Shown here piece by piece: positions 5,184-35,855 of a stretch of 64,000 nucleotides of DNA. Position numbers and translations under genes: made by a program. This DNA is from an uncultured Gammaproteobacteria bacterium (lineage in GTDB: Bacteria; Pseudomonadota; Gammaproteobacteria; Steroidobacterales; Rariloculaceae). The notes under the pieces are model-generated. The model worked only from the letters and a program-made list of their open reading frames with translations, did not search any database and was not told the origin of the DNA. How positions within the stretch are numbered: the stretch's first letter is position 1; each line of letters begins with the position of its first letter. Location of the stretch: assembly GCA_963741255.1 (NCBI GenBank), contig CAVUHM010000001.1:10675-74674 (forward strand), given 5' to 3'.

Positions 5184-7011
5184 ATGGGACGTTGGGTCGC
5201 CTATGCGGCAGTGTGTGCGTGCGCGCTCGTGGCCTCTTGGACGACAGTCGCTCAGCCCGACCTCGACGGGGACTGGCGCTCGATACGGCACGAGGATTTG
5301 CCCGATCGCGGCCCGGGAGTCGGCCTCGGCGATTACGCGGGCATTCCGCTGACGGACGCCGCGAGGCAATTCGCCGAGAGCTGGGACGCGGCGCGGCTCA
5401 GCATGCCGCAGCAGCAGTGCCGCGTGCATGCGTCGCCGTACAGCTATCGCGGCCCGCTGAACTTGCGGATTTCCGCCGAGCGCGACCCGCGTACGCAGGA
5501 AGTCGTCGCCTACCGGCACTACATCAGCACGTACGAGCAAACGCGCACGATCTGGATGGACGGCCGGCCGCATCCTCCGCCGCTACGCTCCGCACACGTG
5601 GATGGGGTTCTCGACGGGGCGGTGGCAGGGTGACCGGCTCGTCGTCGAGACGACGCACATCAAGAACGGCTGGCATCGACGCAACGGTGTACCGATGAGC
5701 GATCGGGCGACGATGACCGAATATCTCGTCCCGCACGAGGACACGTTCACGCACATCGCCGTGATTCGCGATCCCGTCTATCTGACGGAGCCGTGGGTCA
5801 AGACGCAGCACTTCGAGATCATGCGGCGCGCATTGCCGGCCAACGCCTGGCTCTGGCCGTGCACGGTCGTCGAAGAGGTGGACCGCGATCCGAACGAGGT
5901 GCCGCACTATCTGCCCGGCAAGAACCCCTATATGGCGGACTACCGCGCCGAGGTGCATCTCGACGTGCCGGGCGTCGGCGGCGGTGCCGCTACGCTGCTG
6001 CCGGAGTTCGCGCGGCGAGTGGCGAACGAGCCCGCGACGCCGGCGCAACCGCCCCGACGCAGCGGCCGTGCCGCGTCGGCGCGTCGAGCAGGCACCGCCG
6101 CGAAGCCGGCCGCTCAGCCGACCGACGCGATCGAAACTTGGCAGATCCGCGACAACGTTTACATGCTGGTCGGCGCGGGCGCCAACACGACGGTGCATAT
6201 CGGGCTCGATGGCGCCGTGGTCGTCGACCCCAAGCTCGAGGGCGCGAGCGACCGGTTGCTCGCCGCCATCCGCGCGCTCACGCCGCTGCCGATCCGCTTC
6301 GTCATCAATACGCACGTGCACGCCGATGCGATGGGCGGCAACCAAGCCGTGGCCGCCGCCGGCGCGACTCGCACGGGCGGCGTCGTCGTGCGGACGATCG
6401 GCACCGAGCTTCACCGAAGCGGCCGCGATCGTCGCGCACGAGAACGTGCTGGCGCGAGTCTCGACGCCGGGCCCCGACGAGCGACCGCAGCGCGCGTGGC
6501 CGACCGATACGTTCTTCGGCACGCGCCGCGAGTTCGCCGTCAACGGCGACGGCGTCGAGCTGCGGCATTTCCCGAACGCGCACACGGACGGCGACACGAT
6601 CGTCTATTTCCACCGTGCCGACGTGATCGCCGTCGGCGACCTCTTCAGCACCGAGACGCTACCCCGTCATCGATCTCGAGCGCGGCGGCTCGGTGCAGGG
6701 CCTGCTCGCGGCGCTCGACACGATCATCGAGCTCGCGATTCCCGACGTCGATCACGAAGGCGGCACGATGATCGTGCCGAGCCACGGCTATCTGGCCGAC
6801 GAGTTCGACGTGGCCGAGTATCGCGACATGTTGGCGATCGTGCGCGACCGCGTGCGGGACATGCTCGATCGCGGCCTCACGCGCGCCGAGATCCAGGCCG
6901 CTCGGCCGACGTTCGATTGGGACGCGCGCTACGGTGCGGAGTCCGGGCGAGTGGACCACCGCCATGTTCGTCGACGCCGTGATCACGAGCCTGAGCCAGA
7001 GGAGACGTGCG
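5184..7011 (+). pseudogene. GDTLV-motif periplasmic domain (unassigned family) followed by a metallo-beta-lactamase-fold domain; frame broken about 4 times; may be a fusion or two genes
   Basis: Signal peptide MGRWVAYAAVCACALVASW. N-terminal domain has GDW...GDYAGIPLT...GRWQGDRLVVETTHIKNGWHRRNGVP. An Ala/Pro-rich linker follows. The MBL domain has VINTHVHAD (HxHxD) and NAHTDGDT. Read by joining ORFs 4764-5633, 5602-6771, 5984-6982, 6693-7727 and 6934-7548. The 3' end is unresolved. Confidence 0.55.
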
Positions 7012-7764
7012 ATGAAGCGGCAATCGCTTGGCGCTCGTCACGGTCTTCGCAGCTTTGCATCGGCCAACCGCGTGACGGCTCAGTCCGCGCGCGCCGAAGC
7101 GCCCGTCGATCTGACCGGCTATTGGGTCTCGGTCGTGACCGAAGACTGGCCGTGGCGCATGCACACGCCGGCGAAAGGCGACTATGCGAGCATCCCGCTC
7201 AACGCGGAGGGCAGGCGCGTGGCCGATCTATGGACGGATGCGCAAGACGGCTCGTGCCTCGCGTTCGGCGCGGCCGCCGTGCTGCGCATGCCGACCCGCG
7301 TGCACATCACTTGGGCCGACGATTCGACGCTGAAGATCGAGACCGACAACGGCGCGCAGACGCGGTTGTTCCACTTCGATCGAGGCGGCGGCGAACGCGA
7401 GCCGCGCCGCGGTCGCTGCAGGGCACGTCGGTCGCCGAATGGCAGCACGCGGAAGTCGTGCGAGCGCGCGGCGCAGAGGGCGGTGAAACGAGCGCACGAG
7501 TCGACGGCGGCGCGTGGACGCCGCTCAAGGTCACGACGACGAATCTGACAGGCCGCCTGGCTGCGGCCGAACGGTGTGCCGGTCGGCGAAAACGCCGTCG
7601 TGACGGAGTACTTCGACTATTTCACGGAAGGCGAGGAGCAGTGGTTCGTCGTGACGACGATGGTCGACGACCCGCAGTATCTGAGCGAGCGGCTCGTGAT
7701 CAGCTCGAACTTCAGGCGGGAGCATAACGGCGCCCGATGGGCGCCGCAGTCTTGCAAAGGGTGA
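7012..7764 (+). pseudogene. paralogue of the GDTLV-motif family (divergent), frame broken at least twice
   Basis: AGGAGA Shine-Dalgarno-like sequence lies before ATG 7012. It shares LTGYW...GDYASIPLN and TTTNL.GGWLRPNGVP...VTEY with the 5184 gene. Joined from ORF 6934-7548, the frame of 6693-7727 (about 7385-7550) and ORF 7576-7764. Confidence 0.5.
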
Positions 7765-7909: not shown

Positions 7910-9501
7910 ATGCTTGGGGGACTGCTGCATAGCCGTGGGCATTGGGCGCTGGGTTTATTGATCACTGTCGTTGTTGCCGCGCCGGCGCTGGCGGCCGACG
8001 ATCCGCTCATCGCGGCGGCGAGGGCCGGCGACGTTGGCGGCGTACGCAAGCTCATCGGCGAGCGCGCCGACGTCAACGCGCAGTCCGCAGACGGTTCCAC
8101 GCCGCTGCTCTGGGCCGCCTACAACGGTGAGCCCGCGATGGTGGAGGCGCTGCTCGAAGCGGGCGCCAAGCCCGACACCGCGAACCGCTACGGCGTGACA
8201 CCGTTGCTGCAAGCGAGCCGTGCCGGCGACGCGGCCGTGATCGCGACATTGCTCGAGCATGGCGCGAACGCCGCGCTCGGGCACCCGGACGGCGAGACGC
8301 CGCTGATGGGCGCCGCACGCGTGGGGCGCATCGAAGCCGTCGAGCTGTTGCTCGCGGCGGGCGTCGACGTCAACGCTGTCGATGCGTTCCAGCACGAGAC
8401 CGCGCTGATGCGTGCAGCCGCTGAGGGGCACACGGTGGTCGTCGATCGGCTGCTCGCAGCCGGCGCTGACCCGAACGGCCAAGCGCGTGTCACCGCGCTC
8501 AAGGATCGCAAGAACGCCGACTATCCGAGCGGCGGTTTCTCGGCCCTGATGTGGGCCGTGCGTAACGGCCATGTCGATGTCGTGCGGCGGCTCGTCACCG
8601 CCGGCGCGGATCTCAATGCGCGGAACGGCGACGGTGCGACCGCGATGATGATCGCGATCGTCAACGATCGCTACGATCTTGCGGCGGACGCTCGTCGACC
8701 TCGGCGCCGACGTCAACGACGGCTCGCTCTACCACGCCGTCGAGATGCGCGACGCAACGACGGACTGGTACGCGCGCGACGGCTCGAAGCTGCGCGCGAA
8801 TCACCCGAACCGGCACACGGCGCTCGACCTGATCGCACTGCTGCTCGACAAGGGCGCCGATCCCAACAAGCCGTTCGTCGGCCAGATGCACTCGGCGACG
8901 ATGTGCTGCGACACCGTCGCCAACGGCTCGCCGTTCTTCCGCGCCGCGATCGCCGCCGACGTCGTAGCGCTGAAGCTACTGCTCGCGCGCGGTGCGGCTG
9001 TCGAATGGACGCCGAGCAACGCCGACGGCTTGAAAGGCGCCAACACCAACGTCGGCCTGACGCCGTTGATGGTCGCAATGAAAGGCGGCCGTGGCGTGCC
9101 GTTCTCAGCCGGTCCCGGTTTCGTGCGCAAGGGACCGCCTCCGTTTCGCGAGCAGTCGAACCGAGAGCCGGCGCAGGCCGTGAAGCTGTTGCTCGAGGCC
9201 GGTGCGAACCCGAACGCCGTATCGCCGACGAAGGCCACGGTGCTGCACCTCGCCGTGGAAACGCGCAACCTCGAGACGCTCGATGCCTTGATCGCGGCGG
9301 GCGCCTCGCTGAGCGCAAAGAATGCCGATGGGCTCACGCCGCTGCAGGTTGCCGAGAAGCTCAAGCCCGACGATCCGGAGAATCGCAGCCCGTTCGGGCC
9401 GCAGGAGTTCATGCCGGTCGCGACGCCCGCAGCAGATCGTCGCGCTGCTGCGCGAGGCCGCCGCGGCGCCGGCGGTGGCTCACGAGGTCGCAGCGCGGTA
9501 A
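7910..9501 (+). pseudogene. exported ankyrin-repeat protein (copy 1), frame broken about twice
   Basis: Signal peptide (ALGLLITVVVAAPALA). Many repeats of the ankyrin type (G.TPL..AA..G....V..LL..GAD.N). ORF 7910-9889 is valid to about 8680, then ORF 8679-10310 to about 9425, then a third frame ending ...QQIVALLREAAAAPAVAHEVAAR at about 9499-9501. Confidence 0.75.
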
Positions 9502-11944
9502 TGAAGAGGAAGTCGCTCTACGTGGGTGCCGGCAGTGTCGCGGTCGCGGCGGTGGCCGCCGGGGTCGTGCTCCATACGCAGCGCTCGCCGGATGCCGTGC
9601 TGCACGAGCGCTGGGCGATGATCGATCACTACTGCGTCAGTTGCCACAACGATGCCGAGCTCACGGGCGGTGTGTCGTTCGAGCGCCTGAAGCCCGAGAA
9701 CGTCGCGGCCGATGCGCGCATCTGGGAAGCCGCGATCCGCAAGCTCAGGCTCGGCATGATGCCGCCGCGCGAGGAGCCGCAGCCGGAGCCCGGCGTGCGA
9801 GAGTCGTTCGTCGGCGCGCTCGAGTCCACGCTCGACGCTGCGGCCGAGGCTCGGCCGTACGCGGGCGAGCGGATCCGTGCACCGGTTGAATCGCGCCGAG
9901 TACGCCAATGCCGTGCGCGATCTGCTCGGCGTCGAGATCGACGTCGCCGAGCTTCTGCCGAGCGACGGCGGCGACTTCGGCTTCGACAACATCGCCTCGG
10001 TGCTGACCACGTCGCCACTGTTGCTCGAGCGTTATTTGACGGCGGCGCTGCGCATTGCGGATGCGGCGATCGGGGATGTCCAAGCGGCGCCGACGGCGGC
10101 AACGTACAAGATCGGTGTCGAGGTCACGCAGAACCAGCACATGGCGGGGCTGCCGATCGGCACGCGCGGCGGCACCGTCGTTCGCCACAACTTCCCGGCC
10201 GACGCCGAATACGTCCTGTCGGGTCGGCTGCTGAACACGGTGGCCGAGGGGTACTCGGGCGTCGAAGGCCACGACGAGCCGCACGAGTTCGTCATCACGA
10301 TCGACGGTGAGCAGGTGTTCTCCGCGCGGATCGGTGGACCCGAGGACCACGCCGAAAACTCGCGCGACTTTCTTGGCGTCGCACGCCGCCATCGACGAGC
10401 GCATGACGTCGCCGCGGTTGGCCGTCACGGCCGGCCCGCACGAAGTAGGCTTCACCTGGGTCGAGCGTCCGGCCGTCGAGCAGAACGTCTGGCAACCGCC
10501 TCTGCGCGCCACGCAGGAAGTGCACAACCCGTCCGGGCTACCGCGGCTCGAGTCCGCGAGCATCGTGGGGCCGTACGACGCAACGGGCGTTAGCTCCACT
10601 CCGAGCCGCGAGCGCATTCTCGTCTGCCAGCCGCAATCGCCGGCCGACGAGCCGGCGTGCGCCGAACGGATCTTCTCTTCGCTCGCGAAGCGCGCGTTTC
10701 GCCGGCCCGTCGACGCCGAGGACTTGGCTCCGGCGCTTGAGTTCTTCGCGCAGGCACGCGAGGAGGAAGGCAACTTCGACGCCGGCATCAAGGCAGGCAT
10801 TGCGCGCATTCTCGTGAGCCCGTCGTTCCTGTACCGCACCGAGTACGACCCGGCCGATCTCGCGGCAGGCTCTACGCATCGCGTCAGCGATGTCGAGCTC
10901 GCATCGCGGCTGTCGTTCTTCTTGTGGTCCAGCATCCCCGACGACGAGCTGCTCGATGTCGCCATCGATGGCCGCTTACGCTCCGCGAGCGTGCTCGAGG
11001 CGCAGGTGCGGCGAATGATCGCGGATCCGCGTGCCGACGCGCTCGTCCAGAACTTCACGGGGCAGTGGCTGCAGCTGCGTAATCTCGAGCAGCGCGTGGT
11101 TCCGGATTTGCTGCTGTTCCCCGACTTCGACGACAACTTGAGGCAGGCATTCCGCCGCGAGACCGAGTTGCTGTTCGCCGAGGTACTGCGCAGCGATCGC
11201 AGCGTGCTCGAGCTGCTGACCGCGAACTACACCTTCGTCAACGAGCGCCTGGCACGGCACTACGGAATCCCCGGCGTCTATGGCGCGCGCTTCCGCCGCG
11301 TCGAGCATACGGACCCGAACCGCTACGGCCTGCTCGGCCACGGCAGCATCCTGTCGCTGACCTCGGCGGCGACCAGAACCTCGCCGATCATCCGCGGCAA
11401 GTTCCTGATGGCGAACTTCTTGAATAACCCGCCGCCGACTCCGCCGGCCGTGGTTCCGGCGCTCGAGGACAGCGCGCCGAAGGACCGGCCTTCGACGGTG
11501 CGCGAGCAGCTCGAGCGCCATCGCGCGAATCCGAATTGCGCGGTTTGCCATCGAACACTCGACCCGCTCGGGTTCGCGCTCGAGAACTTCGATGCCGTCG
11601 GTCAGTGGCAAGACCAGACGATCGACGGCTTGCCGATCGACGCCGCCGGCGTGCTCGCGGACGGGACGCCCGTCGACGGGCCGCAGCAGCTGCGCGCGGC
11701 GCTGACCGCGAAGCCGGAGGTTTTCGCCGGCGCAGTGACCGAGAAGCTGTTGATCTACGCGCTCGGTCGCGGTCTCGAGCCGGCCGATATGCCCGTCGTG
11801 CGCAGCATCCTGCGCAATGCAATCAAGGACGACTATCGGCTCACGGCCATCGTGCTCGGTATCGTCGATAGTCTTCCGTTTCAAATGCGTACCAAGCCTG
11901 GTGCCTCGAGCGATCTACAGAGCATCGCGCAAGCGAAGGAGTAG
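9501..11944 (+). pseudogene. DUF1592/DUF1588/DUF1585-type large heme-motif protein (copy 1), frame broken about twice
   Basis: Its ATG overlaps the upstream stop (TAATG). N-terminal CVSCHN and C-terminal CAVCHRTLDPLGFALENFD heme-type motifs. Blocks VELASRLSFFLWSSIPDDELL, NFTGQWLQLRNL and TRTSPIIRGKF are as in Planctomycete-type DUF1592/1588 proteins. Joined from the frame of ORF 8679-10310, ORF 9877-10593 and ORF 10307-11944. Confidence 0.8.
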
Positions 11945-11947
11945 CCC

Positions 11948-13276
11948 ATGTTCGTGACGAAAAAGCATCTGCCTCGCCGCACTTTCCTCCGAGGCGCACT
12001 CGGGACGGCCATTGCGTTGCCGTTTCTCGATGCGATGGTGCCGGCGTTCGCGCAGTCGCGCTCGGGCGCTCAGTTGCGCTTCGGCGCGGTGTACCTCCCG
12101 AACGGCATCTACCCGCAGCTCTGGCACCCGGCGAAGCCCGGCCGCGATTTTGAGTTCCAGCAGATCATGAAACCGCTCGAGCCGTACCGCGATCACCTCG
12201 TGACCGTGAGCCAGCTCAAAGCGCCGGACGGCTCGGTGCACCTCGGCGCGAGCGCTGCCTGGTTGAACGGCGTGGGCCCCGTAAACGAGGCCGGCAACTT
12301 CGGCAAGATCGAGTCGAAGAAAACCGTCGACCAATACATCGCCGACGTGATCGCAGGCGACACGCCGCTGCGCTCACTCGAGGTAGGCACCGAAGACATG
12401 GGTACCGCAGCAGGTGCCTGCGACGGCTTCCCATGCGTGTTCTTCAACGCGATCTCGTGGCGCGACGATACGAGCCCGCTGCCGGTGGCGATCAATCCGC
12501 AAGTTACCTTCGAGCGCATGTTCGGCGATCCCGGCACGGCCCAACAGCGTCTTACCCGTCTGCGGCGCAAGCAGAGCATGCTCGATTCAGTCGCGCAGGA
12601 GACAGCGCGCTTGCAGCACAAGCTCGACTCGGCCGACAACCGGCTGCTCGACGAGTATCTGACGAACGTGCGGCGTGTCGAGCAGCAGCTGCAAAAGATG
12701 GAGGCTCGCCGCGACACGCTCGAGGACGCGCCGGCGTCGCCGGTCGGAATTCCCGATGCGTTCGACGATCACCTAACTGTCACGTACGACCTGATGCACC
12801 TTGCGTTTCAAGGCGACATCTCGCGCGTCTTCACTTACATGCTCGGCCACGAGGCGAGCGGCCGTAGCTACGCCAACATCGGCATCTCGGAGCCGCACCA
12901 TCCCGTCTCGCATCACGGCGACAAGCCCGAGGGCATCGAGCGCTACGCGAAGCTCACGACTTATCAGGTGGTCAAGCTCTCGGAGTTCGTCGGTAAGCTC
13001 GCGGCGACGCCGGACGGGGAGGGCACGCTGCTCGATTCGGTCGTGCTCTATTTCGGCAGCGGCATGAGCAACGGCAACGCGCACGATCGCAACAGCCCTC
13101 CTGCGCTGCTCGTCGGCGGAGCGAACGGCAGGCTGCAGGGCAACCGCCACGTCGTCGCCAAGCCGAAGGAGCCGACGGCGAACTTGCTGCTCGCGCTTGC
13201 CGACCTTGCCGGCGCCGAGGTGGAGTCGATCGGCGCCAGTACGGGCCGGCTCGCGCTGCACGAGACCGCCGCCTAA
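11948..13276 (+). CDS. DUF1552 family protein (copy 1), TAT signal
   Basis: Intact 442-aa ORF starting 3 nt after the DUF1592 stop. N-terminus HLPRRTFLRGALGTAIALPFLDAM is typical of DUF1552, the usual partner of DUF1592-type proteins. Confidence 0.9.
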   Translation: MFVTKKHLPRRTFLRGALGTAIALPFLDAMVPAFAQSRSGAQLRFGAVYLPNGIYPQLWHPAKPGRDFEFQQIMKPLEPYRDHLVTVSQLKAPDGSVHLGASAAWLNGVGPVNEAGNFGKIESKKTVDQYIADVIAGDTPLRSLEVGTEDMGTAAGACDGFPCVFFNAISWRDDTSPLPVAINPQVTFERMFGDPGTAQQRLTRLRRKQSMLDSVAQETARLQHKLDSADNRLLDEYLTNVRRVEQQLQKMEARRDTLEDAPASPVGIPDAFDDHLTVTYDLMHLAFQGDISRVFTYMLGHEASGRSYANIGISEPHHPVSHHGDKPEGIERYAKLTTYQVVKLSEFVGKLAATPDGEGTLLDSVVLYFGSGMSNGNAHDRNSPPALLVGGANGRLQGNRHVVAKPKEPTANLLLALADLAGAEVESIGASTGRLALHETAA

Positions 13277-13304
13277 TCGTTCGCCCCAGCCATCGGGGCG
13301 AGGC

Positions 13305-13691
13305 GTCAAGTCATCGGAGCCGCGGGACGAGGTCGCAGTCGGTGCGTCCGTTCGCGGGTCAGCCGGAGCTGATCGAGCGCATTCCGACGAACGGCTCGAC
13401 GCTCCTCATCTGCTCGATGTCGAAGTTGGGCAAGCGCTGTGCCGGGCCGTGCATCTGAATGCAGTCACCGCGGCGCGCGCGGAGCAAGCGCTCGACGACT
13501 TCGGAAATCTGGTGATCGAGCGGCATGCCCATCGCGAGCTGCTCCCGCGGATTTGGCAGCTACGAGACTCGCTAAGCGCGTATGACGGCACATACGTCGC
13601 GCTCGGCGAGGCTCTCGATGCGCCCGTTCTCACGTGTGACACGAAGCTTGCGCGCGCGCACGGCCACCGGGCGCGGATCGAAGTCGTCTAG
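13305..13691 (+). pseudogene. orphan PIN-domain (VapC-like) toxin remnant
   Basis: The C-terminal two thirds read like VapC (APHLLDVEVGQAL...IERHAH..LLPRIWQLRDSLSAYDGTYVALGEALDAPVLTCDTKLARAHGH.ARIEVV). There is no usable start codon. The usual N-terminal D in (I/V)xDAS reads VGAS. No antitoxin ORF lies upstream, because DUF1552 ends at 13276. Confidence 0.45.
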
Positions 13692-13809
13692 GTCGGCGCC
13701 GGGGGGCGCGTCCAAGCACGGTATTCATCGTTTTTCCGTGCTTTTCCCGTTGTGTTCGGGATTTCCGCCTAGCAGGGCGTTATATAGGAACCTCTTGTTG
13801 GGAGCTTCA

Positions 13810-14259
13810 ATGAGAAGAGGAATGGCGTTGTTTGTCGTGCTCGCATCGATGCTGGCGACCGCTGCCTCGCGCGCGCACCATTCGGTCTGGGCAGAATTCG
13901 ACAACGGTCGTCCGCTGGAGCTGCGCGGCCACTTCGTGAAAATGGACTGGATCAACCCGCACTCGTGGGTGCACCTCGAAGTCACGATGGAGGACGGCTC
14001 GAAGGCAGCCTGGGCCGCGGAAACACCGCCTCCGAATCAACTCATTCGGCAGGGCTGGCGGCGCAGCGACATTCAGCCTGGAGACGAGATCGTCGTGCGC
14101 GGCTTCGCGGCCAAGAACGGCACGTATCGCCTCTGGGCGCGGAACGTCCAGATCGTCGCGCGGAACGGCGAGCCGCTGGCGGAACCGCGGACCGTCCTCG
14201 CGTTGCTCGACCCGAACCCGGCCGGCGTGGCCGACGGCGTGTTGCCGGGCCGGAACTGA
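13810..14259 (+). CDS. small secreted protein with predicted mature N-terminus HHS (DUF6152-like, copy 1)
   Basis: GGGAG lies before ATG 13810. Signal peptide ends ...ATAASRA|HHSVWAEFD. It shares NPH, W..E...P......GW and GD blocks with the ORFs at 21601-22029 and 53424-53807. The family name is from memory and needs an HMM check. Confidence 0.75.
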   Translation: MRRGMALFVVLASMLATAASRAHHSVWAEFDNGRPLELRGHFVKMDWINPHSWVHLEVTMEDGSKAAWAAETPPPNQLIRQGWRRSDIQPGDEIVVRGFAAKNGTYRLWARNVQIVARNGEPLAEPRTVLALLDPNPAGVADGVLPGRN

Positions 14260-14299
14260 GCGTGGCCGCGAATCGCCAATTCGATTACGAGGTGCGCGC

Positions 14300-15088
14300 G
14301 TGAGCATTCGCGCCGCGGCGCTCGCCTTCGTCGTCGCGGTTACGCCCGTGCTCGCCGAATCGGTCGCCGCCCAGGAGTTCACGCCGGCGCGCAATCGCCA
14401 CGGTCAGCCGGATTTCGAAGGCATCTGGCAGGTTCTCGATCCGGCCCCGCATTTCAACATAGAGTCGCACGGCGCGAGCTACGGCGTGCCGGCGGGCCTC
14501 GGCATCGTCAAGGATCCCGCCGATGGCCGGATTCCGTACACCGCGGCGGGGCTTGCCAGGCGAGAGACGAATCGTGCGAACCGCGCGGCCGATCCGTTCG
14601 CCCGCTGCTACAAGCCGGGCGTGCCACACCTCATGTACCTGCCGTTTCCGTTGCAGATCGTGCAGTCGGAACATTTCCTGACGATCATGTCCGAGTACAT
14701 GCACAACACGCGGTTCATCTTCTTCAATCGCAGCGACCATTTCGGGGAGGGCGAGCTCGACCTGTGGAACGGCGACTCGGTCGGTCGTTTCGACGGCGAT
14801 TCGCTCGTGACGGACGTGTTCAATTTTCATCCTGACATCTGGCTCGACCGTTCCGGCAATCATGCGGGCGGCGCGACGCTGACGGTCGAGGAGCGCTTCA
14901 CGCTCATAGATGCCGATACGATCCGGTATCGCGCGACGTTGACCGATGCGGAAGACTTCACGCGGCCATGGACGATCGAAACGCATCTCTATCGCCACAA
15001 AGACCCCGCTAAGCAGATTCTCGAGTACGAATGTCATGCCTATGCCGAAAACGCACTCGGGCCGCCCGTGTTGCCGGAAGTGCCGTAG
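14300..15088 (+). CDS. GDTLV-motif periplasmic protein (unassigned family)
   Basis: Intact 262-aa ORF with a signal peptide. Motifs CYKPGVP, GRFDGDSLVTDV, WLDRSGNHAGG, TVEERF, DAEDFTRPWT and C-terminal EYEC are shared with the paralogues at 15102, 20068-21581 and 53809. Confidence 0.8.
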   Translation: MSIRAAALAFVVAVTPVLAESVAAQEFTPARNRHGQPDFEGIWQVLDPAPHFNIESHGASYGVPAGLGIVKDPADGRIPYTAAGLARRETNRANRAADPFARCYKPGVPHLMYLPFPLQIVQSEHFLTIMSEYMHNTRFIFFNRSDHFGEGELDLWNGDSVGRFDGDSLVTDVFNFHPDIWLDRSGNHAGGATLTVEERFTLIDADTIRYRATLTDAEDFTRPWTIETHLYRHKDPAKQILEYECHAYAENALGPPVLPEVP

Positions 15089-15101
15089 GTCGGTGACCAG
15101 C

Positions 15102-16007
15102 ATGCGAGCGCGCCAAAGTCCGTCGAGCACTTGCCGCGGTCATTTCGCCGGCCTGCGGATGCTCATGCTTTTGCTCGTGCTGGCGTCGGCGTCTGCAAGC
15201 GCGCAGCCCGCACTCGAGCGCCTGCCGAACGGCCGGCCGGACCTCGGCGGCAACTGGACCATCGCGGCCAGCATCTCGGATATCTCCGCGAACATCGTGC
15301 GTGTGGACGGCAAGCCAGTCGCCGGCGACGAGCGTGCCATTCCCTACACGCCGGTGTACGCACAGCTCCGTGCCGAAGCCGAGAGCAGGATGTTCGAGGA
15401 ACCGGAGCTGCACTGCTACATGTCGGGCGTGCCGAGCCATCTCTGGCGTCAGGCATATTCCGGTGCGGGCCTCGTCATTCAGCACACCGAAGAGTTCGTC
15501 GTCTTTCTGCACGAGTTTCAGGGTTCGCGGCGCATCGTGTCGCTGACGCGGCGCGAGCATACTCCAGCCGACATCCAGCTGTTCATGGGCGACGGTCTCG
15601 GCCGTTTCGAAGGCGATACGCTCGTCATCGAAACCAGAAACAACAATGCCCTGACCTGGCTCGACACCGGCGGCAATCGGCATTCCGCCCAGCTCGTCGT
15701 CACGGAGCGATTCGTGCCGGTCGACAACGACCGCTACGAGTACGAAGCGACCTTCGTCGATCCTGCGGCGTATACGGCTCCGTGGACGATCGCCGCGCCG
15801 ATGACGCGCGGCCCAACCCGAACGCCGAGATCCTCGAGTTCGCCTGCGTCGAGGGCAACACCGACCATCTGCACTACACCGAAGATGTCGGGGGCACGTC
15901 GATTGCGGCACCGAGTCCGGCGCCGGAGCCGCCAATGCGGCGGGCCCGTCGAACTAGCGAACGCAGCGAACCGCAATCACCTACGGCAGCAGGCGAGGAG
16001 TCACTGA
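15102..16007 (+). pseudogene. GDTLV-motif periplasmic protein (second tandem copy), frame broken near 15810; true stop unresolved
   Basis: Signal peptide ...LMLLLVLASASASA|QP. Motifs HCYMSGVP, GRFEGDTLVIETRNNNALTWLDTGGNRHS, VVTERF and DPAAYTAPWT. The C-terminal EILEFACVEGN is found in the frame of ORF 15131-16867. Confidence 0.6.
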
Positions 16008-17004
16008 TGAGCAACAGGATGGCCGCACTATCGACTTCGAGTGTCCTGCTGGCGCTCGCGGTCGCCTGGTCGGCGACGACGAGCGCGCAGCCGGATGCCG
16101 CGCCGGCGCCGCTCGGCGCCGCCGAGATCCGCGAGATGTTCGACGAGCTCTCGAACTGGGGCCGTTGGGGCGAGAACGATCAGCGCGGAACGCTGAATCT
16201 GGTGACGCCTGCCAAGCGCCGGCAGGCCGCGGCACTCGTGCGCGAGGGTATCTCGGTGTCGCTGTCGCAGAATCTGTCGACGGAGCAGGCGGTCGACAAC
16301 ACGAGGCCGATGCAACTCATCATGACGGCGCAGCCGGGCTCACCGGTCGCCATGGACGAATGGCGCATCTTCTACCACGGGCTGACGTATGCGCACATGG
16401 ATGCGCTCTGTCATGCGCGCTTCGAAGGCAAGGCGTACAACGGCTTCGCTGAGACCGACGCTGCCGAGAGCGGTTGCGCCCGGTCGGGCATCGAGCACCT
16501 CAAGGACGGCGTGCTCTCGCGCGGGATACTGATCGACGTGCCGCGGCTCAAGGGCGTCGACTATTTCGCACCGGGCACACCGGTTCTCGCGAGCGACATC
16601 GAGGCGTGGGAGCGCGAAGCCGGCGTCAGGATCGAATCGGGTGACGTCGTTTTCATTCGCACGGGCCGCTGGGGCCGGCGCTCCGCGAGGGCCCGTTCAG
16701 CCTCCAGGGCGGATCGCCGGGCGTTCACGTCTCGGCACTGCCGTTGCTGCGCGAACGCGATGCGGCCGTGCTCGGCACGGATGTCGGTCTCGACGTCGTG
16801 CCTGCAGGCGTCGAGGGCGTCGTCATCCCGACGCACACCGTTGCGATCGCGAGCATGGGACTTCTGATCATCGACAACGCGGACCTCGAGGAACTGGCTG
16901 CGACGGCGGCGCGCCTCAATCGATGGCAATTCATGTTGAGCGTTGCGCCAATTCCTGTCGCTGGCGCGACCGGCTCTGTGGTGAACGCCATCGCGACGTT
17001 TTGA
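16007..17004 (+). pseudogene. cyclase-family protein (kynurenine-formamidase-like fold), exported; one frame break near 16670-16680
   Basis: Signal peptide MSNRMAALSTSSVLLALAVAWSA. Motifs WGENDQRGTLN, YHGLTYAHMDALCH and a C-terminal AGATGSVVNAIA-type ending. Joined from the frame of ORF 15131-16867 and ORF 16744-17004. Confidence 0.7.
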
Positions 17005-17017
17005 GCGTGTCAGTACG

Positions 17018-28370: not shown

Positions 28371-30455
28371 TTAGTCGCTCGGCAACGTGAACACGTAGAG
28401 CGCATGGCCGCGCTCGGGCACGCGGATCTCCGGAGTCAGCGTCGCCGGAACGCCGCGTGTGCTGCCCCCGCCGAGCCCGGTAGTGACGGCGATATATTGC
28501 TTGCCGTCGACCGCGAAGCTGATTGGAAATCCTTGCACCGATGTAGCGAGCCGAGTTTCCCAAATCACGTTACCGTCGCGCACGTCGACGGCCTTGAAGC
28601 TCCGATCGAGATCGCCGGCGAACGCCAAGCCGCCGGCTGTCGACAACACCGATGTCAGAAACGACGCACGCTGCTCGAGCGACCAGACTTGCTCGAGCGT
28701 ATCCACGTTGAAGGCCGCAAGCTTGCCGACGTTGCCGTTCGCGCCCGGTGCCACATAGAAACGTCGGTCGGCACCGCCGCTGCTGCCGCCGCCGGGGGTG
28801 AGCTCCACGGCACGCGCGCGCATCGAAGCGCAGCTCTGACTCAGTGGAATGATGAGTTGCCGTGTCGGCGCGTGGAAGCTCATCGCGGGCCAATTCTTGC
28901 CGCCGGCCGTGCTCGGGCACGCGTCGATCCACTCGCCGACTTTTTGGTCGATGATGTCTTGCCGGTAGCGCGGCCGCCCGGTCTCCCGATCGAAGCTGGC
29001 CCAAATGTTCTGCAGCACGGTCTCCGCGTGGCCGATGTAAGCGCCCGTGCGGCGGTCGTTCTTCCACAGGATGCCGTCCTTACCGACCGACAAGACCCAC
29101 TTGTCGGGGCCGGCGTCGACGAGCACGCGTTCGTAGACGACATCGAGGTCGAACGATTCGCCGGGCGCATGCGAGAAGTACCAAGCGAGCTTGCCCGTCG
29201 TCGCGTCGAGCGCGAGCGTCGAGCTCGTGTAGAGCGCGGCGTCGTTGGCGTTCATGCCGCGGCTCGCGGGCATCCACGGTTTTGCCTGCGTCGTGCCCCA
29301 GTACGTGAGGTTGAGCTCGGGATCGTAGCTGCCCGTGATCCACGACTCACCGCCCGCGCGATAGAGATCCGGCAGGCCGCTCCAACTGTCGCCGCCGGGC
29401 TCGTCCGTGAGCGCGATCGTACGAAACCGCCAGAGTTGCTTGCCGTCCTCAGGATCGTAAGCGCTGATGAAGCACTTGGTCTGCTCGAAGATGCTGCACG
29501 TGCCCATGCCTTGGATGATGAGTCCGTTCGCGATGACGGGGCCGCTATTCGTGGCATACACGTCGGGCATGACGACGTCCCACGCGAGCTCGCCGGTGCG
29601 CGCATCGAGCGCGATCAGACGCGCTTCTTGCGGACGGTTGGCCCAGGTGATCGTGCTCTGAAAAATCAGCTTGTTGCCGTAGAGCGAGATGCCGCGCGGC
29701 GCAACGTCGGCGCCGACGTGGTATTCCCAGATCAGGTTGCCCGTGCGCGCGTCGAGCGCTTGCACGATGCCGCCGGTATTGGCGAGGTAGATCGTGCCTT
29801 GGTAGGCGAGCGGGGCGGGTTGGTTGATGCCGCCATCGCGCATCGGCCAAATCCAGGCGAGCTGCAGGCGCTTGGCGTTGTCGGGCGTTATCTCGGCGAG
29901 CGGGCTGAAGCTCGTTGCGCTGTAGTCGTGTCGCAGCATCACCCAGTCGGCAGGATCCGGGCGCCGTAGCGTGTCGTCGGTGACCGGCACGAAGCGCGGC
30001 ACCGTGCCGGCCACCATGACACCCGTGGGCCCTTCCGCTTCGCGAGTAGTGAGGATGGCCGCGGTACCCGGAAGATCCTTGCCGAGGCGCTCCGTCGAGG
30101 CGGCCGTGATGGCCGCTTCGCTCGCCGGGCTGCCGTTGGCTTGCAGCAGATAGGCCACGATATTCGTGTAGGCCTCGACCTCGAGGCCGCCGGGATTGTC
30201 CGGCGGCATCGTCGAGCGCGTCTGCGCGATGAGCTCGTTCGTGCCGCGGTTGCCCCAGCTCGCGACGAACTCGGGTCCCCCGAGTGAGGCGTTCGGCAGT
30301 TGGCGCAGGTTCGCGCCGTGGCAGGTGGCGCAGCTCTGCTCGAACACGGCGCGGCCAGCGGCGGCTTGCTCGGTCGTGAACGCGAATACCGGTTCGCTGT
30401 GAAAGCCAAGCGCCGCGATGATCGCGAGCGAGGCGAAACGTTGCATCGAGCTCAT
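28371..30455 (-). CDS. quinohemoprotein: N-terminal cytochrome c domain fused to a PQQ-type 8-bladed beta-propeller dehydrogenase
   Basis: Intact ORF. The start is probably MSSMQRF at 30455, 7 nt after the lactonase stop. CATCHG heme motif at about residue 50. The rest carries PQQ-dehydrogenase repeats ([38 protein letters not shown]). Confidence 0.85.
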
Positions 30456-30462
30456 CGTGTTT

Positions 30463-31734
30463 TCAATACCGTACGTCCCCACACCACAGCTGAAACAGGC
30501 CGCCGGTCTGCACGTCCTGCTTGTATTGAAACGTCAATCGGCCGTCGGGCTCGATCGAGAACAGAACGATTCGCGGCGGCACGATCTCGACGCTGTTTCC
30601 TCTGCGCCGTTTTATCGGTCCTTCGGACTCGTGGCTCGTGGCCACGAGCGAGCGGCCGTCGGGATGCAGCGCGAACATCCGGACATCGAGGCTCTGCGGA
30701 TCCGCAGATTGGATCAGCCGCGGCTCGCCGGTCGCGGCATCCACGTCCAACACCGCGATTGAATTCTCCATGTTTTCGGCGATGACCTCTTCGCCCTGAA
30801 AAACTTCCTTGCCGCGACCGCGATTCGCGACATACAGCGTCCGGCCGTTGGTCGGATGCATGCGGATCGCCGATGCCGCTTGTCCTGGCTGCGACCGGGT
30901 ACCCGGCGCCAGAAGACTCGTGACGAACAACGGTTCTGCCGAAAGCCGATCGTCCTCGATGCCGAACGTTTGCAGCTGATTCTGCGACTCGATGACCACG
31001 TACACCCATTTGCCGGACGGATGAAATTCGACGTGACGGCAGCGAAAGTCACGGCCGCCGTTCGGCGCTACGGACTGCTTGTTCGTGAGCTGACCGTTGG
31101 CGTAGCCGAATATCTTGAGCGCACCGCGATCTTCTTCTCTTTGGCCCGAAATCGCCTGATTGCCGCGCGCAGGCAGGATGACGGCACGACCGGAGGGCAT
31201 TACGCGAATTTGGTGAGCATAGATTCCGGCATCGAGCGTCGCCGCTTGTCGCACTTCGCCTCCGACCGAGCCGTCGGCGTTGAGGCGATGAACGGCGATT
31301 CCGCTCGGTCGATTGAAAGCGGAGAGTAAGTGCTCGCCTCGAGGGTCGACCGTGATGTGGATCGGCCGATGGCGCAAGCGGACTGCAGCGCCGAGCGGCT
31401 CGAGCGCTCCCGACGAATCGACTTCGAAGGCGTTCAGATAATGGTTCTGCGGATTCGCCGCCGTATGCTCATCGCTGCTCGCGACGTAGAAATGCCGGCC
31501 CCATTGGCACGCTTCCTGAATTTCTTCGGCTACGACGATCGGTTCGCCGAGCTCGACGAGGGATTTACCGTCGTCGGCAATTCGGTAGCGCAACAGTCGG
31601 GGGCCGACGTTGGCATAGATATCCGCCCGCACTCTGTTCGGCTGTTGCGCCCCGAGGAGGCCGAGATGACCGAGCGCTGCCGCGCCGGCTGCGCCCGCCA
31701 AGCCTGCGTTGAATCTACGTCGATGCACGGCCAT
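30463..31734 (-). CDS. lactonase-family 7-bladed beta-propeller protein, TAT signal
   Basis: Intact 423-aa ORF. N-terminus [19 protein letters not shown]. Repeats such as [35 protein letters not shown] and [10 protein letters not shown] are typical of the 6-phosphogluconolactonase/lactonase family. Confidence 0.8.
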
Positions 31735-31739
31735 CCGCT

Positions 31740-32588
31740 CTAGGCGTGCTCACGGATGAATGCAAGCACGTTGGCGACGCACTCGTCCGGATTCGCGACT
31801 GCGATGTGATACGCGTCGCTCTGTAGCACGACGAGCCGCGAATCGGGTATCGCCACCTGATACTTGCGCACCTTTTCGACGGACTGCAGCGCGCTTCTGT
31901 CCGCCGTGATGATCAGCGAGGGTGCCGCGATGCGCTGCAGCACGCCGTCTCTTTCGAGGTCGAAGCTCGATAGCGCCGCATTCAGTCCCTGCGTGCCCGC
32001 TTGCGGCGCGGCCTTCTCCATCGCGTTCCAGTATTCGATCATCTCCGCGGATGCGGACGACCCGAGTCTGTCCTTCTGCGGAACGGGCGATGGATTCGAA
32101 ATCGAGATGACCGAAGCGGGTCCGCTGACGACGCAGAGAGACCGCGTCCTTAAGGGAAAGTCGGCAGCGAACTGCATCGCGATCGGGCCGCCGGTTTTCG
32201 CGCCGACAATGTGAGCGGACTCGATGCCTGCTTTGTCGAGCACGCTCGCTATATAGCGCGCAAGACCTGGAAACGACCATTCGAAGCCGGCCGGAACCGT
32301 CGAGAGTCCGCAACCCGGCAGGTCCGGGCGAAGCACGCGATACTCCTTCGCCAGTGTCGGTACCCACGCGAACCAGACGACGCCCGATTCGAGCGCACCG
32401 TGAATCAGAACGACGGCTTCCCGCTGGCGCCAAGGTTCACCGAACCAATCGTCGCGAAAAAACCGGTCGGTCGGTTCTCCGACGGGCTGTGTTTGGGCGT
32501 GCGCCGCCGTCGAAACGATACCGGTGCCGCCGATAGCCGCGCCGATCGTTGTCTTCAGGACGCTGCGGCGGGATACGGTGATCGCCAT
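31740..32588 (-). CDS. alpha/beta-hydrolase-fold protein with TAT signal and a non-canonical nucleophile elbow
   Basis: ORF 31740-32624, with the start probably at MAITVSRRSVLK (32588). It has VVLIHG and a C-terminal His (DAYHIAV). The elbow reads HIVGAKTGG where GxSxGG is expected. Confidence 0.75.
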   Translation of the reverse strand: MAITVSRRSVLKTTIGAAIGGTGIVSTAAHAQTQPVGEPTDRFFRDDWFGEPWRQREAVVLIHGALESGVVWFAWVPTLAKEYRVLRPDLPGCGLSTVPAGFEWSFPGLARYIASVLDKAGIESAHIVGAKTGGPIAMQFAADFPLRTRSLCVVSGPASVISISNPSPVPQKDRLGSSASAEMIEYWNAMEKAAPQAGTQGLNAALSSFDLERDGVLQRIAAPSLIITADRSALQSVEKVRKYQVAIPDSRLVVLQSDAYHIAVANPDECVANVLAFIREHA

Positions 32589-32598
32589 AGCGGATCCT

Positions 32599-34658
32599 CT
32601 AGTTGGGCTGCTTCTCTTCGGCACGCCGCGCGAGCTCGCGCACCCACGCGCTGACGTTCGCGATGGCGGCCTCGTCGAGGAAACTGCCGAACGCGGGCAT
32701 CAGGTTGCGGCCGGTCGACACGATACGTGGAATCTCGTCCGCTGCCAGCGCCGTCGTGAAAGCGGGGCCGCCGTGACCGCCGGTGCCGTCGGCGCCGTGG
32801 CAGAACACGCAGGAATTGACGTAAGCGGCCCGCCCGCTTTCGAGACTCACTTCAGCATTGCCGCTGCCCGGGGCTCGAGTAATCGACTGCTGCGTCGCTT
32901 CGGCGACTTCATCGAGCGTGCCGCTGAGCGAGAACAGCCAGACACTGTCGCCGCGAGCACCGCCCTGCACATGTCCACCCGAGTAGACCGCGACATACTG
33001 TTGCCCGCCGTGCTCGAAAACGCTCGCCGGTGCATTGACGCCCGCTCCTGTTTGAAACTCCCAACGTTTCGCGCCGGTCGCGGAGTCGAGTGCGGTGAGA
33101 CGACCATCGTTGCGGCCCACGAACACGAGGCCGCCGGCCGTCGTGACGGAACCGCTCAGACAGCGCTCCGGCCAATGCTGCTGCCACACGAGCTTGTTGG
33201 TTCGCAGATCGAGCGCGGCGAAAACGCCGAACAGCGGCATCGGGTTGGTGCCGAAGTTGCCGCCGATGTAGAACTCGCCGGGGGGCGGAAGCTCGTCGCT
33301 AATCTCCCAGGCGCGAAATGCGCTCGCGCCGTCGGCCGCGCAGACATAGATGTAGCCTGTTTCGATGTCGACCGAGCTCGGCGGCCAGTTCGCGCCGCCG
33401 CGGAGGCCCGGCTTCGCCAAGACGTAGTCCGTCCAATAGGGCGTGAAGATCCCGCCGCGATTGACGAGCTCGAACCCTTCGGGCGCGACTTCCATCGACA
33501 ACGGGACGAACGCATCGCCGATCGGAAACGGTTGCGTCGCCGCAGTGGCCTGGCGCGGCTCCTGCGGCACGGCGCGCTCCTCGATACCGATCAGCGGTTC
33601 GCCGGTCGTTCGGTCGAGTAGGTAGACCCAGCCCGTCTTGCCTGCCTGAGCCAAGCCCTTGCGCTCGACGCCGTCGATTTCGACGTCGAATAGCACGACG
33701 GGATTCGGTGAGTCGTAGTCCCACAGATCGTGATGGACTTGCTGAAAGTGCCAGCGGTATTTCCCGGTTCTCACATCGACCGCAACGATCGATGCGGAAA
33801 ACAGGTTGTCGCCGGGCCTCACGGCGCCGTTGAAATCGGGGCCGGCGTTGCCGGTGGAGAAGTAGACGAGTCCGAGCTCGGGGTCGAGGGCCGGTGTCTG
33901 CCACACCGTCGCGCCGCCGCTGCGCCAGACCTCGTTGTCTTGCGGCCAGGTGTCGTGGCCGAGCTCGCCCGGGCCCGGAATCGTGTAGAACGTCCATACC
34001 AGCGAACCGTCGTCGGCATCGTAGGCTTTGACGCGGCCGCGAACGCCGAACTCGGCACCGCGCAAAGCCCGTGATCACGAGGCCGTCGTAGTAGAGCGGC
34101 GCGGTCGTGATCGTGAAGCCGTCCTGCCATCGCTCGGCCTGGATGCTCCAGACGACCTCGCCTGTGCGCCTGGTCGAGGGCGACGAGCTTGCCGTCGAGC
34201 TGGCCTGCGTAGACTTTGCCGTCGCCGATCGCCACACCGCGATTGGTCCAGCCGCAGCAGACCGTCGAGATGCCGGGCTCGAGGTTCGCCTCGTAGGTCC
34301 ACAGGAAGTCGCCGCTGTCGACATCGATGGCGAAAACATCGTTGGCGGGCGTCGCGACGTACAGCACGCCGTCGAAAAAGATCGGTTGTGCTTCGGCCGA
34401 ATAGCGCGGGCCGAATCCCGAGCCGTTCAGTCGTGCTCGCCACACACCCTTCAGACGCTCGACCGTGTCGCGGTTGATTTCTTGCAGAGGCGAGTAGCGG
34501 CGGTTGTACCAGTCCCCGCCGTTGGTCGGCCAGTCGCTGCGTGGGGCAGTCAGCGACGAGCCCGCGAAGTTCGGTGCGACGACCTGCGCCTCGACGCCGA
34601 CGAGCGCCGGTGCCGCGAGCAGTGCCAGAACGATTGCAGTGGAGAACCTAATGTTCAT
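32599..34658 (-). pseudogene. quinohemoprotein alcohol-dehydrogenase-type PQQ enzyme with C-terminal cytochrome c domain; frame broken twice
   Basis: Signal peptide. DWPTNGGDWYNRRYSPL and the vicinal Cys pair in STVCCGWTNRG are typical of quinoprotein alcohol dehydrogenases. C-terminal CVFCHG heme motif. Joined from ORF 33819-34658, the frame of ORF 33299-34339 (about 34165-34065) and ORF 32599-34065. Confidence 0.8.
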
Positions 34659-34706
34659 CGGAGCTCACCTTGCGTGTAACCGAGCGTCGCCAGCTTAACC
34701 TGTCGC

Positions 34707-35855
34707 TCAGTCGGCCGAGAATGCGAAGACGGTTCGGCTCCGAAACGTCTGGTCGGGGAGCAGCGTCGTCCGCGGAAAGTGCGGCTGGTTCGGCGAGTCC
34801 GGGAAGTGGCCGGTCTCGAGCGCGACGCCGGCGCGCAGCGGGTATCTCACGCCGCCTTTCATGGCGCGCTGCGTGTCGATGAAGTTCGCGGTGTAGAGAA
34901 AGAGTCCCGGCTCGTTGGTCGAGACCGTGAGCGTCCTGCCCGACACCGGGTCGTGCAGCACGGCGGCTTCGGCGAGCTCGCCGGGAACGCTCGAGCGGCG
35001 CAGCACGAAGTTTTGGTTGTAGCCGCGGTTCTGGACCATTTGCGGGTCGTCGGCCGCGATGTCGCGGCCGATGGGCTTGGCCACGGTGAAGTCGAAGGGC
35101 GTGCCGCGCACAGACCTGATCTCGCCCGTCGGCGTGTTGTCGGGCAGCGCGAACGTGAAGAAGTCCGCAGCGATCGCGAGCGTGTGGGCGAGCACATCGC
35201 CGTTGCCGGCGCCAGCCAGGTTGAAGTAGCTGTGCTGCGTGAAGTTGACGACGGTGGGTTTCGTCGTCGTTGCGGTGTAGTCGACGATGAGGCGGTAGTC
35301 GTCGGTCCAATGATAGGTCACGGACACGGTCACGCGACCCGGAAAGCCTTGATCGCCGTCGGGGCTCACGAGCGTGAAGCGCAGGCCTTGGCCATCGGCG
35401 GTACGGATTCGCGACGTCGACCACAGCCGGTTGCCAAAGCCGTCCGGCCCGCCGTGCATGACGGACGGCGCCGGCTTGCCGTCGCGTGTCGTGCCGCTCG
35501 TGAGCTCGAACGTTTGGCCGTCGAGCGCGATCTTCGTGCTCGCGATTCGATTCGCGTAGCGGCCGATCGTCAGGCCGAACTGCGCAAAGTTGCTCGTGTT
35601 GTAGTCCGCCGCCGAGTCGTAGCCGAGGACCACGTCGGCCAGCGCACCGTCGCGATCGGGTGCCTCGACGGACAGGATAGCGGCGCCGAGGGGCATGAAG
35701 GCCGCTCTTGCGCCCGACGAGTTCGTAATCGTGTAGCGCGCGATCGCGCGGCCGTCGGCGAGCGCGCCCCAGGGCTCTTCGGCGATGCGTGCTCGATTTT
35801 GCGCGACAGCGCTGAGCGAGGCTGCGCTGACCGCGACGACGATCAGGTACTTCAT
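34707..35855 (-). CDS. aldose 1-epimerase (mutarotase) family protein, Sec signal
   Basis: Intact 382-aa ORF with signal peptide MKYLIVVAVSAASLSAVAQ. Blocks GRYANRI, HGGPDGFGNRLW and NLAGAG are typical of galactose mutarotase-like proteins. Confidence 0.85.
   Translation of the reverse strand: MKYLIVVAVSAASLSAVAQNRARIAEEPWGALADGRAIARYTITNSSGARAAFMPLGAAILSVEAPDRDGALADVVLGYDSAADYNTSNFAQFGLTIGRYANRIASTKIALDGQTFELTSGTTRDGKPAPSVMHGGPDGFGNRLWSTSRIRTADGQGLRFTLVSPDGDQGFPGRVTVSVTYHWTDDYRLIVDYTATTTKPTVVNFTQHSYFNLAGAGNGDVLAHTLAIAADFFTFALPDNTPTGEIRSVRGTPFDFTVAKPIGRDIAADDPQMVQNRGYNQNFVLRRSSVPGELAEAAVLHDPVSGRTLTVSTNEPGLFLYTANFIDTQRAMKGGVRYPLRAGVALETGHFPDSPNQPHFPRTTLLPDQTFRSRTVFAFSAD

Follow-up and report, generated by a model that had tools for sequence, protein, structure and literature searches.

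The window analysed here is a 64,000-nucleotide (nt) stretch of contig CAVUHM010000001.1 from an uncultured gammaproteobacterium of the Rariloculaceae, and all positions given are positions in this window. Between 7910 and 17004 it carries seven genes and one gene remnant on the plus strand, which belong to two units. Unit A (7910-13276), here called the trio, comprises genes for an ankyrin-repeat protein, a DUF1592-type cytochrome with two CxxCH motifs and a DUF1552 protein. Unit B (13798-17004), here called the cassette, comprises genes for a DUF6152 protein, two members of a family termed GDTLV (GDTLV-A and GDTLV-B) and a cyclase-family protein. The G+C content of the window is 62-71%, which makes spurious open reading frames (ORFs) common. 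Genes were placed by Pfam matches, intact homologues and a codon-bias path, and frames were mapped with intact homologues and local hidden Markov models (HMMs). Coordinates are collected in Table 1.

The original prediction, made from the sequence alone, described this region as copy 1 of a module that recurs further downstream as copy 2, and all genes listed for copy 1 were found in the predicted order. The TAATG overlap, in which the ankyrin stop codon TAA (9499-9501) overlaps the DUF1592 ATG at 9501, was confirmed at 9499-9503 by reading the sequence, and a gap of 3 nt (11945-11947) indeed separates DUF1592 from DUF1552. The predicted series HHS, GDTLV, GDTLV, cyclase also stands, HHS being DUF6152 and the cyclase a PF04199 protein; the end of the region at 16007 does not, and the cyclase gene (16007-17004) lies outside it. 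This end proved to be an artefact of reading a single frame: it is the end of a wrong-frame ORF, and the real stop codon of GDTLV-B is TAG at 15955-15957. Copy 2 was found with the gene order DUF1592, VOC, DUF1552, ankyrin, DUF6152 and GDTLV at 47.2-54.6 kb. Both copies thus exist, but the two-copy picture is incomplete, since the window contains a third DUF6152-GDTLV-GDTLV cassette without a trio and more GDTLV genes upstream.

The ankyrin and DUF1592 genes are present as described, but each reads through only with two frame corrections. The ORF starting at ATG 7910 contains the ankyrin repeats (Pfam Ank_2, E = 1.6e-39, 134.7 bits; Ank, 131 bits), and an N-terminal Sec signal peptide was read from the sequence. 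The frames of the DUF1592 gene were mapped with the intact proteins of two genome loci, L021 and L055. Between 10307 and 11944 it encodes PSD5 (DUF1595, 71.3 bits), PSD4 (DUF1592, 164.1 bits), PSCyt3 (DUF1588, 110.1 bits) and PSD2 (DUF1585, 76.3 bits), all above the gathering scores. Further upstream, PSCyt1 reaches 21.3 bits against a cut-off of 22 with CVSCH at residue 45, and PSD3 (DUF1587) is split by a frame break; the stitched frame still gives a readable stretch that aligns to the PSD3 region of L021. The intact L021 protein has the full series PSCyt1/Cytochrome_CBB3, PSD3, PSD5, PSD4, PSCyt3 and PSD2. The stitched window protein has an N-terminal hydrophobic anchor and CxxCH haem-binding motifs at residues 45 and 681, both of which are kept in five homologues. 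The DUF1552 protein matches PF07586 with E = 1.9e-80 (271.2 bits, cut-off 30); residues H318, P319, S321, H322 and H323 are invariant in the family alignment (A3), and a twin-arginine signal, RRTFLRG, was read from the translation at residues 10-16. A PDB search revealed no sequence relative of DUF1552 or DUF1592.

To follow the trio beyond this genome, metagenomes were scanned with the DUF1552 alignment, and the resulting 80 loci were mapped with locally built HMMs. Loci with the ankyrin gene first are called type I and those with the ankyrin gene last type II. The DUF1592-DUF1552 pair is adjacent and co-oriented, with DUF1592 first, in the window and in the mapped metagenome loci, and the ankyrin gene adjoins this pair in 52 of 52 loci in which both sides are visible (26 first, 26 last). 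The trio is also present in L021 and L055. The best matches of the copy 1 components all fall into one set of loci (L100, L103, L099 and L109; 62-70% identity), and those of the copy 2 components all fall into another (L142, L165, L166 and L130; 45-52%). Since the three components of each copy share their best-match loci, the trio evolves as a unit, which is the co-divergence that the original prediction had proposed to look for. The window DUF1552 protein is 62-70% identical to its counterparts in type I metagenome loci, and intact type I ankyrin homologues align at 54-64% identity without interruption over the frame break at 8680/8691. The prediction had further taken the same gene content in shuffled order as a sign of selection for co-localisation. 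For the ankyrin, DUF1592 and DUF1552 genes such selection is supported by these sequence comparisons; for trio and cassette together the argument fails, as set out below.

The homology of the window DNA to 30 type I trio loci is confined to 8011-13257. Homology to relatives of the cassette begins at 13798, leaving a junction of about 0.5 kb (13277-13797) that belongs to neither block. The cassette relatives are three contigs, L001, L088 and L094, that encode close homologues of GDTLV-A and DUF6152. They are 86-90% identical to the window at the nucleotide level (88-90% over the aligned bases), and this similarity is confined to 13798-17008. In L001 the gene upstream of the cassette encodes a pyrroloquinoline quinone (PQQ) dehydrogenase that includes a cytochrome c domain, and a regulator gene follows downstream; in L094 a divergent Ser/Thr kinase-PD40 gene lies upstream. 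In L088 a TonB-dependent receptor gene lies downstream, and the contig starts inside DUF6152, so that the upstream side is off the contig. No trio was found in the visible flanks of these three cassettes. L001 also contains an orthologue of the copy 2 cassette (DUF6152, GDTLV and tannase; 69-71% amino acid (aa) identity), which is located back to back with the first one, again with no trio nearby.

The same picture emerged from a scan with the GDTLV alignment, in which one genome per species was kept. It yielded 80 loci, mostly from Acidobacteriota (Terriglobia, Bryobacterales and Vicinamibacterales) and some from Gammaproteobacteria. DUF6152 is part of the same-strand cluster in 46 of the 80 loci, at least two tandem GDTLV genes are present in 67 of the 80, and the A-type gene precedes the B-type gene in 44 of 53. 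Trio genes (DUF1552 or DUF1592) lie within 10 kb at just three of the 80 GDTLV-centred loci; in one of these, L021, two unrelated genes, one of them MetK-like by sequence, lie between the GDTLV and trio genes. In the genomes that come next in closeness (L005, L008, L009 and L010; 54-77% identity to GDTLV-A) the DUF6152-GDTLV-GDTLV triplet stands beside up to four PQQ dehydrogenase genes, which hints at a link of this cassette subfamily to quinoprotein dehydrogenases.

The synteny comparison with relatives thus gave a divided answer: the trio is kept, but its adjacency to the cassette is not, as seen in the L001 and L094 cassettes. A full eight-gene module kept together is not what the data show, with homology blocks that stop at 13257 and start at 13798 and trio genes at three of 80 GDTLV loci. 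Together, the homology breaks, the cassettes without trio and this low count mean that selection for co-localisation is not supported for trio plus cassette. We regard it as fairly probable (about 70%) that the region consists of two independently conserved gene units lying side by side in an island dense with genes for exported enzymes, with frame breaks that are most likely indels of the assembly.

The junction contains a PIN/VapC-like remnant. The degraded PIN toxin of the original prediction is present as a PIN-like remnant at about 13305-13691, but the match is below threshold (17.3 versus 23.6 bits). Residues 40-123 of the translation of 13290-13688 align to positions 35-117 of the 120 positions of the profile, which is the likeness to VapC/PIN type II toxins; unlike these, the remnant stays below the cut-off and lacks the first 34 profile positions, a start codon and an antitoxin gene. 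No in-frame ATG, GTG or TTG was found from the DUF1552 stop codon to 13449. There is no antitoxin gene upstream, where only about 30 nt separate the DUF1552 stop codon from the PIN-like frame, and tblastn detected no homologue in the 174 fetched loci. The Viterbi path for codon bias marks 13687-13819 as non-coding. A terminator in the 13.3-13.8 kb gap had been named as something that would split the locus; a consensus-based scan revealed no terminator-like or promoter-like site there and none on the plus strand between 7400 and 17400. The splitting role that was to fall to the terminator is played by the synteny break at 13.3-13.8 kb. A search for repeats around the cassette revealed neither repeats at its flanks nor ends of mobile elements, just the GDTLV-A/GDTLV-B paralogy. 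The junction is probably a rearrangement scar holding a dead PIN toxin gene.

All four cassette products have signal peptides. In DUF6152, an invariant His-His comes immediately after the final Ala of the predicted signal peptide, and an NPH motif is also invariant (alignment A2). The AlphaFold2 model shows an oligonucleotide/oligosaccharide-binding (OB) fold with a predicted local distance difference test score (pLDDT) of 82; Foldseek matched it to generic OB folds (LysRS anticodon-binding domain, SSB, PriB and CcmE) with E values of about 3e-4. No sequence relative was found in the PDB and no paper on the family in literature searches. Small periplasmic OB-fold proteins such as CusF and CcmE carry copper or haem. 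DUF6152 resembles these in being small and exported, in its OB-fold model and in its invariant histidines (HH at the predicted mature N-terminus, NPH). It differs from them in having no sequence similarity and in the generic nature of the Foldseek matches, and binding of metal or haem is putative. The cyclase belongs to PF04199, a family of metal-dependent hydrolases, with 40.9 bits for the window ORF and 56.3 bits for the L088 orthologue (cut-off 23.1). Intact orthologues of 332-333 aa are encoded in L001, L088 and L094.

GDTLV-A and GDTLV-B are about 32% identical to each other. The family is large, with 13,535 clusters at E <= 1e-3 and 6,303 at E <= 1e-10 (clusters at 50% identity, 1.84 billion representatives). 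No Pfam match was obtained in the 13 GDTLV proteins scanned, no NCBIfam match for the two compared and no sequence relative in the PDB; an NCBIfam scan of six proteins gave nothing useful. GDTLV-A itself matches neither Pfam nor NCBIfam, and of its 904 homologues none has a Pfam domain among the 120 listed. Many His, Asp and Glu residues and two Cys residues are invariant (alignment A1). The C-terminal half of the structural model resembles calycin-type barrels (fatty acid-binding protein (FABP), lipocalin, streptavidin) through weak matches to FABP barrels (Foldseek E about 1e-3). With template-modelling scores of just 0.25 and 0.42, the fold can be described as possibly calycin-like and no further; a carrier, an enzyme or a metalloprotein would be equally compatible with the invariant His, Asp, Glu and Cys residues.

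Several observations weigh against two separate units. Both trios of the window lie directly beside DUF6152/GDTLV cassettes, and that of copy 1 is bordered by GDTLV-family genes upstream as well as downstream. A GDTLV or DUF6152 gene is found within 1.5 kb of nine of 32 type I trios and within 10 kb of 17 of 32, compared with one of 16 for type II. Some regional association of trio and GDTLV genes is therefore real, or both families share a taxon. The density of GDTLV genes near ankyrin-first trios is 0.115/kb at 0-1.5 kb versus 0.052-0.077/kb further out; this difference is not significant (p = 0.12-0.13), and the background density was estimated from the distal flanks alone. No terminator-like site lies between the units, and all genes are co-oriented; transcription may read through from the trio into the cassette in this genome. 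The structural model of GDTLV is poor (pLDDT 64), and the mechanisms proposed below for both units are inferred, no relative of DUF1552, DUF1592, DUF6152 or GDTLV being found in the PDB.

These points could mean that trio and cassette are one functional module kept by selection, for example with the DUF1592 protein as redox partner of cassette proteins or PQQ dehydrogenases. Two of the three window cassettes abut a trio, the frequencies within 10 kb differ between type I and type II, and L165 and L151 have a co-oriented GDTLV gene 130-257 nt after DUF1552. In L001 the PQQ dehydrogenase fused to a cytochrome c domain takes the place of the trio upstream of the cassette. The c-type cytochrome domain of Cbp2D, a DUF1587-containing protein of Cellvibrio, was studied as reductant of a lytic polysaccharide monooxygenase and as electron donor to a His-brace copper enzyme (PMC8981238). 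We nevertheless consider a single module unlikely. Neither the nearest relatives of the copy 1 and copy 2 cassettes nor the third cassette of the window have an adjoining trio, and at 77 of the 80 GDTLV loci neither DUF1552 nor DUF1592 occurs within 10 kb. Around other trios, the neighbouring GDTLV genes differ in side, strand, distance and subfamily, occur in every orientation and are 20-45% identical to the window GDTLV genes, and the decay with distance is not significant. The window contains at least seven GDTLV-family genes, and at such a density adjacency of trio and GDTLV genes is fairly often expected by chance. Near ankyrin-last trios GDTLV genes are nearly absent (one gene in 123 kb), which may reflect taxonomy. 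We conclude that the trio and cassette families share genomes and islands, not an operon.

A still more specific version, to which we give little credence, is that the co-occurrence is functional. In that case DUF6152 would be an OB-fold metal (e.g., copper) protein with an N-terminal histidine-brace-like site, GDTLV-A and GDTLV-B would form a new periplasmic metalloprotein or enzyme, and the trio would move electrons for cassettes and PQQ dehydrogenases. If true, Acidobacteriota would have a periplasmic system, so far undescribed, that oxidises soil organic matter.

Table 1. Features of copy 1, copy 2, the third cassette and the region upstream of copy 1. Columns: feature; position in the window; strand; remarks: matches, lengths and motifs.
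Feature	Position	Strand	Remarks
Unit A, gene 1: ankyrin-repeat protein	7910-9501	+	Pfam Ank families; ~530 aa once the frame is corrected near 8686 and 9420
Unit A, gene 2: DUF1592-type PSCyt/PSD protein	9501-11944	+	~816 aa; frame corrected near 9867 and 10372
Unit A, gene 3: DUF1552 (HXXSHH) protein	11948-13276	+	PF07586; 442 aa; intact
Junction: PIN/VapC-like remnant	13305-13691	+	Pfam PIN E = 0.0077, 17.3 bits (cut-off 23.6)
Junction: non-coding leader	13692-13809		Lower G+C; contains TTATATAGG; GGGAG shortly ahead of ATG 13810; cassette homology begins near its 3' end (13798)
Unit B, gene 1: DUF6152 protein	13810-14259	+	PF19649, 3.2e-28, 98.1 bits (cut-off 27); 149 aa
Unit B, gene 2: GDTLV-A	14300-15088	+	262 aa; intact; exported; motif here GDSLV
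Unit B, gene 3: GDTLV-B	15102-15957	+	Start ATG 15102 or 15159; stop TAG 15955-15957; motif GDTLV
Unit B, gene 4: cyclase-family protein	16007-17004	+	PF04199; signal peptide
Copy 2: DUF1592	47249-49515	+	
Copy 2: VOC/glyoxalase	~49520-50400	+	Twin-arginine-like leader SRRTLLAAGAG
Copy 2: DUF1552	50437-51755	+	
Copy 2: ankyrin	51774-53456	+	
Separate cassette after copy 2 trio: DUF6152	53409-53804	+	
Copy 2 cassette: GDTLV	53815-54588	+	
Copy 2 cassette: tannase	54601-56235	+	
Third cassette: DUF6152	21990-21694	-	
Third cassette: two GDTLV genes	21488-20204	-	
Third cassette: MR_MLE enolase-superfamily gene	20053-18779	-	Twin-arginine-like leader
Third cassette: short-chain dehydrogenase	18813-18082	-	
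Third cassette: cyclase	17813-17010	-	
Upstream of ankyrin: GDTLV-like 'h288' gene	5190-6009	+	tblastn with L001 proteins, HMM map
Metallo-beta-lactamase-fold gene	6055-6953	+	
Directly upstream of ankyrin: distant GDTLV-family gene	7012-7764	+	

The presence of the same families twice within 64 kb would also be expected if copies 1 and 2 had arisen by segmental duplication in this genome, followed by local rearrangement. The original prediction had disfavoured a simple segmental duplication, and rightly so: the paralogues of the two copies are just 28-47% identical, which rules out a recent duplication, and this candidate was rejected on the identities. The copy 1 components are 62-70% identical to genes of other contigs and thus far nearer to these than to copy 2, both gene orders are widespread in other organisms, and the two cassettes have separate orthologues in L001. 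We therefore regard segmental duplication as very improbable. The VOC gene between DUF1592 and DUF1552 is peculiar to copy 2, since other trio loci have no room for an intervening gene. Two trios side by side on one contig, tandem or convergent, occur in L099, L130, L150 and L159, with one trio of each gene order in L099; trio paralogues tend to cluster, and the window is no exception.

The third cassette has no trio and runs towards the copy 1 cassette; their cyclase genes end tail to tail, the stop codons (17004 and 17010) lying about 5 nt apart. On the other side of copy 1, the h288-like gene, the metallo-beta-lactamase (MBL)-fold gene and the distant GDTLV gene have counterparts in the same order before an ankyrin gene in L088 (7224-10297), and in L097, L102 and L112 MBL and GDTLV genes lie beside an ankyrin gene on the opposite strand. 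A larger conserved unit of MBL, GDTLV and ankyrin genes in the window and these four loci was considered, but the orientation varies and the identities are only about 40%, so it counts as no more than a side observation. Three genes for PQQ-dependent dehydrogenases are located on the minus strand within 11 kb (28413-39571). With PQQ dehydrogenases, tannases, MBL-fold, SnoaL and EthD proteins and the cyclase, the window looks like a catabolic island of exported enzymes.

Homologue-guided mapping over the whole window identified at least 26 clean single-base frame switches, for example within 442-1325, 5250-6932, 32608-34568, 38106-39466, 47249-53456 and 61046-63093. Most long genes are hit, including those for two PQQ dehydrogenases, the MBL-fold protein, a regulator, a SnoaL-type protein and all three trio proteins of copy 2; some long genes, such as the tannase gene, are intact. 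In GDTLV-B there are 1-nt deletions at about 15812 relative to L001, L088 and L094 and at about 15930 relative to L088 only, and the cyclase gene has one at 16688 relative to all three. True mutations could underlie the frame breaks of ankyrin, DUF1592, GDTLV-B and the cyclase, these genes then being pseudogenes of a decaying locus. In favour of decay, three independent relatives all differ from the window coding sequence at about 15812 and at 16688, and L088 does so at about 15930; apart from one CCCC-to-CCC case relative to L001, no site is clearly a homopolymer; and a PIN remnant lies next door. However, the switches occur across the whole window in unrelated genes such as those for the regulator, PQQ and MBL proteins, which makes assembly indels probable. 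Homologues align contiguously and with high identity over each break without loss of residues, and the codon-bias Viterbi path shows the same pattern of switches over all 64 kb, with the codon bias retained in each new frame. Decay of such uniformity would be odd in a free-living soil bacterium. True decay of the locus is consequently a rather improbable explanation, and the sequence comparisons indicate that the breaks are probably indels of the assembly, perhaps a long-read one.

Gene pairs related to the trio have been described before. Rhodopirellula and freshwater Verrucomicrobia contain conserved pairs of a PSCyt3/DUF1588-PSD cytochrome c gene and an adjoining family without assigned function (He et al., 2017, mSphere, PMC5615132). 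According to that study nothing is known about the function of PSCyt3 pairs, and their products are predicted to be periplasmic or cytoplasmic. The window genes share the domain set PSCyt1, PSD3, PSD5, PSD4, PSCyt3 and PSD2 with these planctomycete-type pairs, and both window proteins have export signals; the partner family is not named in the main text of that paper (PMC5615132), and equating it with DUF1552 is our own reading. The window differs in its host, which is outside the Planctomycetes-Verrucomicrobia-Chlamydiae (PVC) group, and in the ankyrin gene for a signal-peptide protein of about 520 aa, which is a constant third member here and is not mentioned in the papers found. Literature searches for the PSD/PSCyt names found no functional study. 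The DUF1592-DUF1552 pair itself is already known, and the constant exported ankyrin partner at alternating ends appears to be unreported in the searchable literature.

An exported ankyrin protein next to redox proteins has a parallel in the katB-ankB locus of Pseudomonas aeruginosa, where an ankyrin-like protein with an export signal is reportedly encoded beside a catalase and needed for full catalase activity. As in the trio, an exported ankyrin protein is encoded beside redox or haem proteins; the partner protein families differ. By this analogy the ankyrin protein of the trio might have a helper or scaffold role.

The domain content and export signals suggest that the trio may be a periplasmic redox complex. 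The DUF1552 protein would leave the cytoplasm folded, possibly with a cofactor, and would act as the catalytic partner. The DUF1592 protein with its two haems would carry electrons to or from it, and the ankyrin protein would be a scaffold or assembly factor. In the cassette, the DUF6152 protein, with its predicted mature N-terminus His-His, would bind a metal or ligand and serve the GDTLV pair and a neighbouring periplasmic enzyme. In this locus the partner enzyme would be the cyclase; in others it would be a PQQ dehydrogenase, a tannase or an MBL-fold enzyme. The cassette would relocate between genomes as one block.

For the annotation of this assembly, the frame breaks mean fragmented gene calls, and keeping trio and cassette apart avoids a false operon. 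Several soil and aquatic phyla are rich in the DUF1592/DUF1552 pair, which has been without assigned function since the first planctomycete genome; the exported ankyrin protein as its invariable third partner is a concrete handle for testing a complex. GDTLV and DUF6152, which are tightly paired, are candidates for new family definitions and may mark periplasmic catabolic islands in Acidobacteriota.

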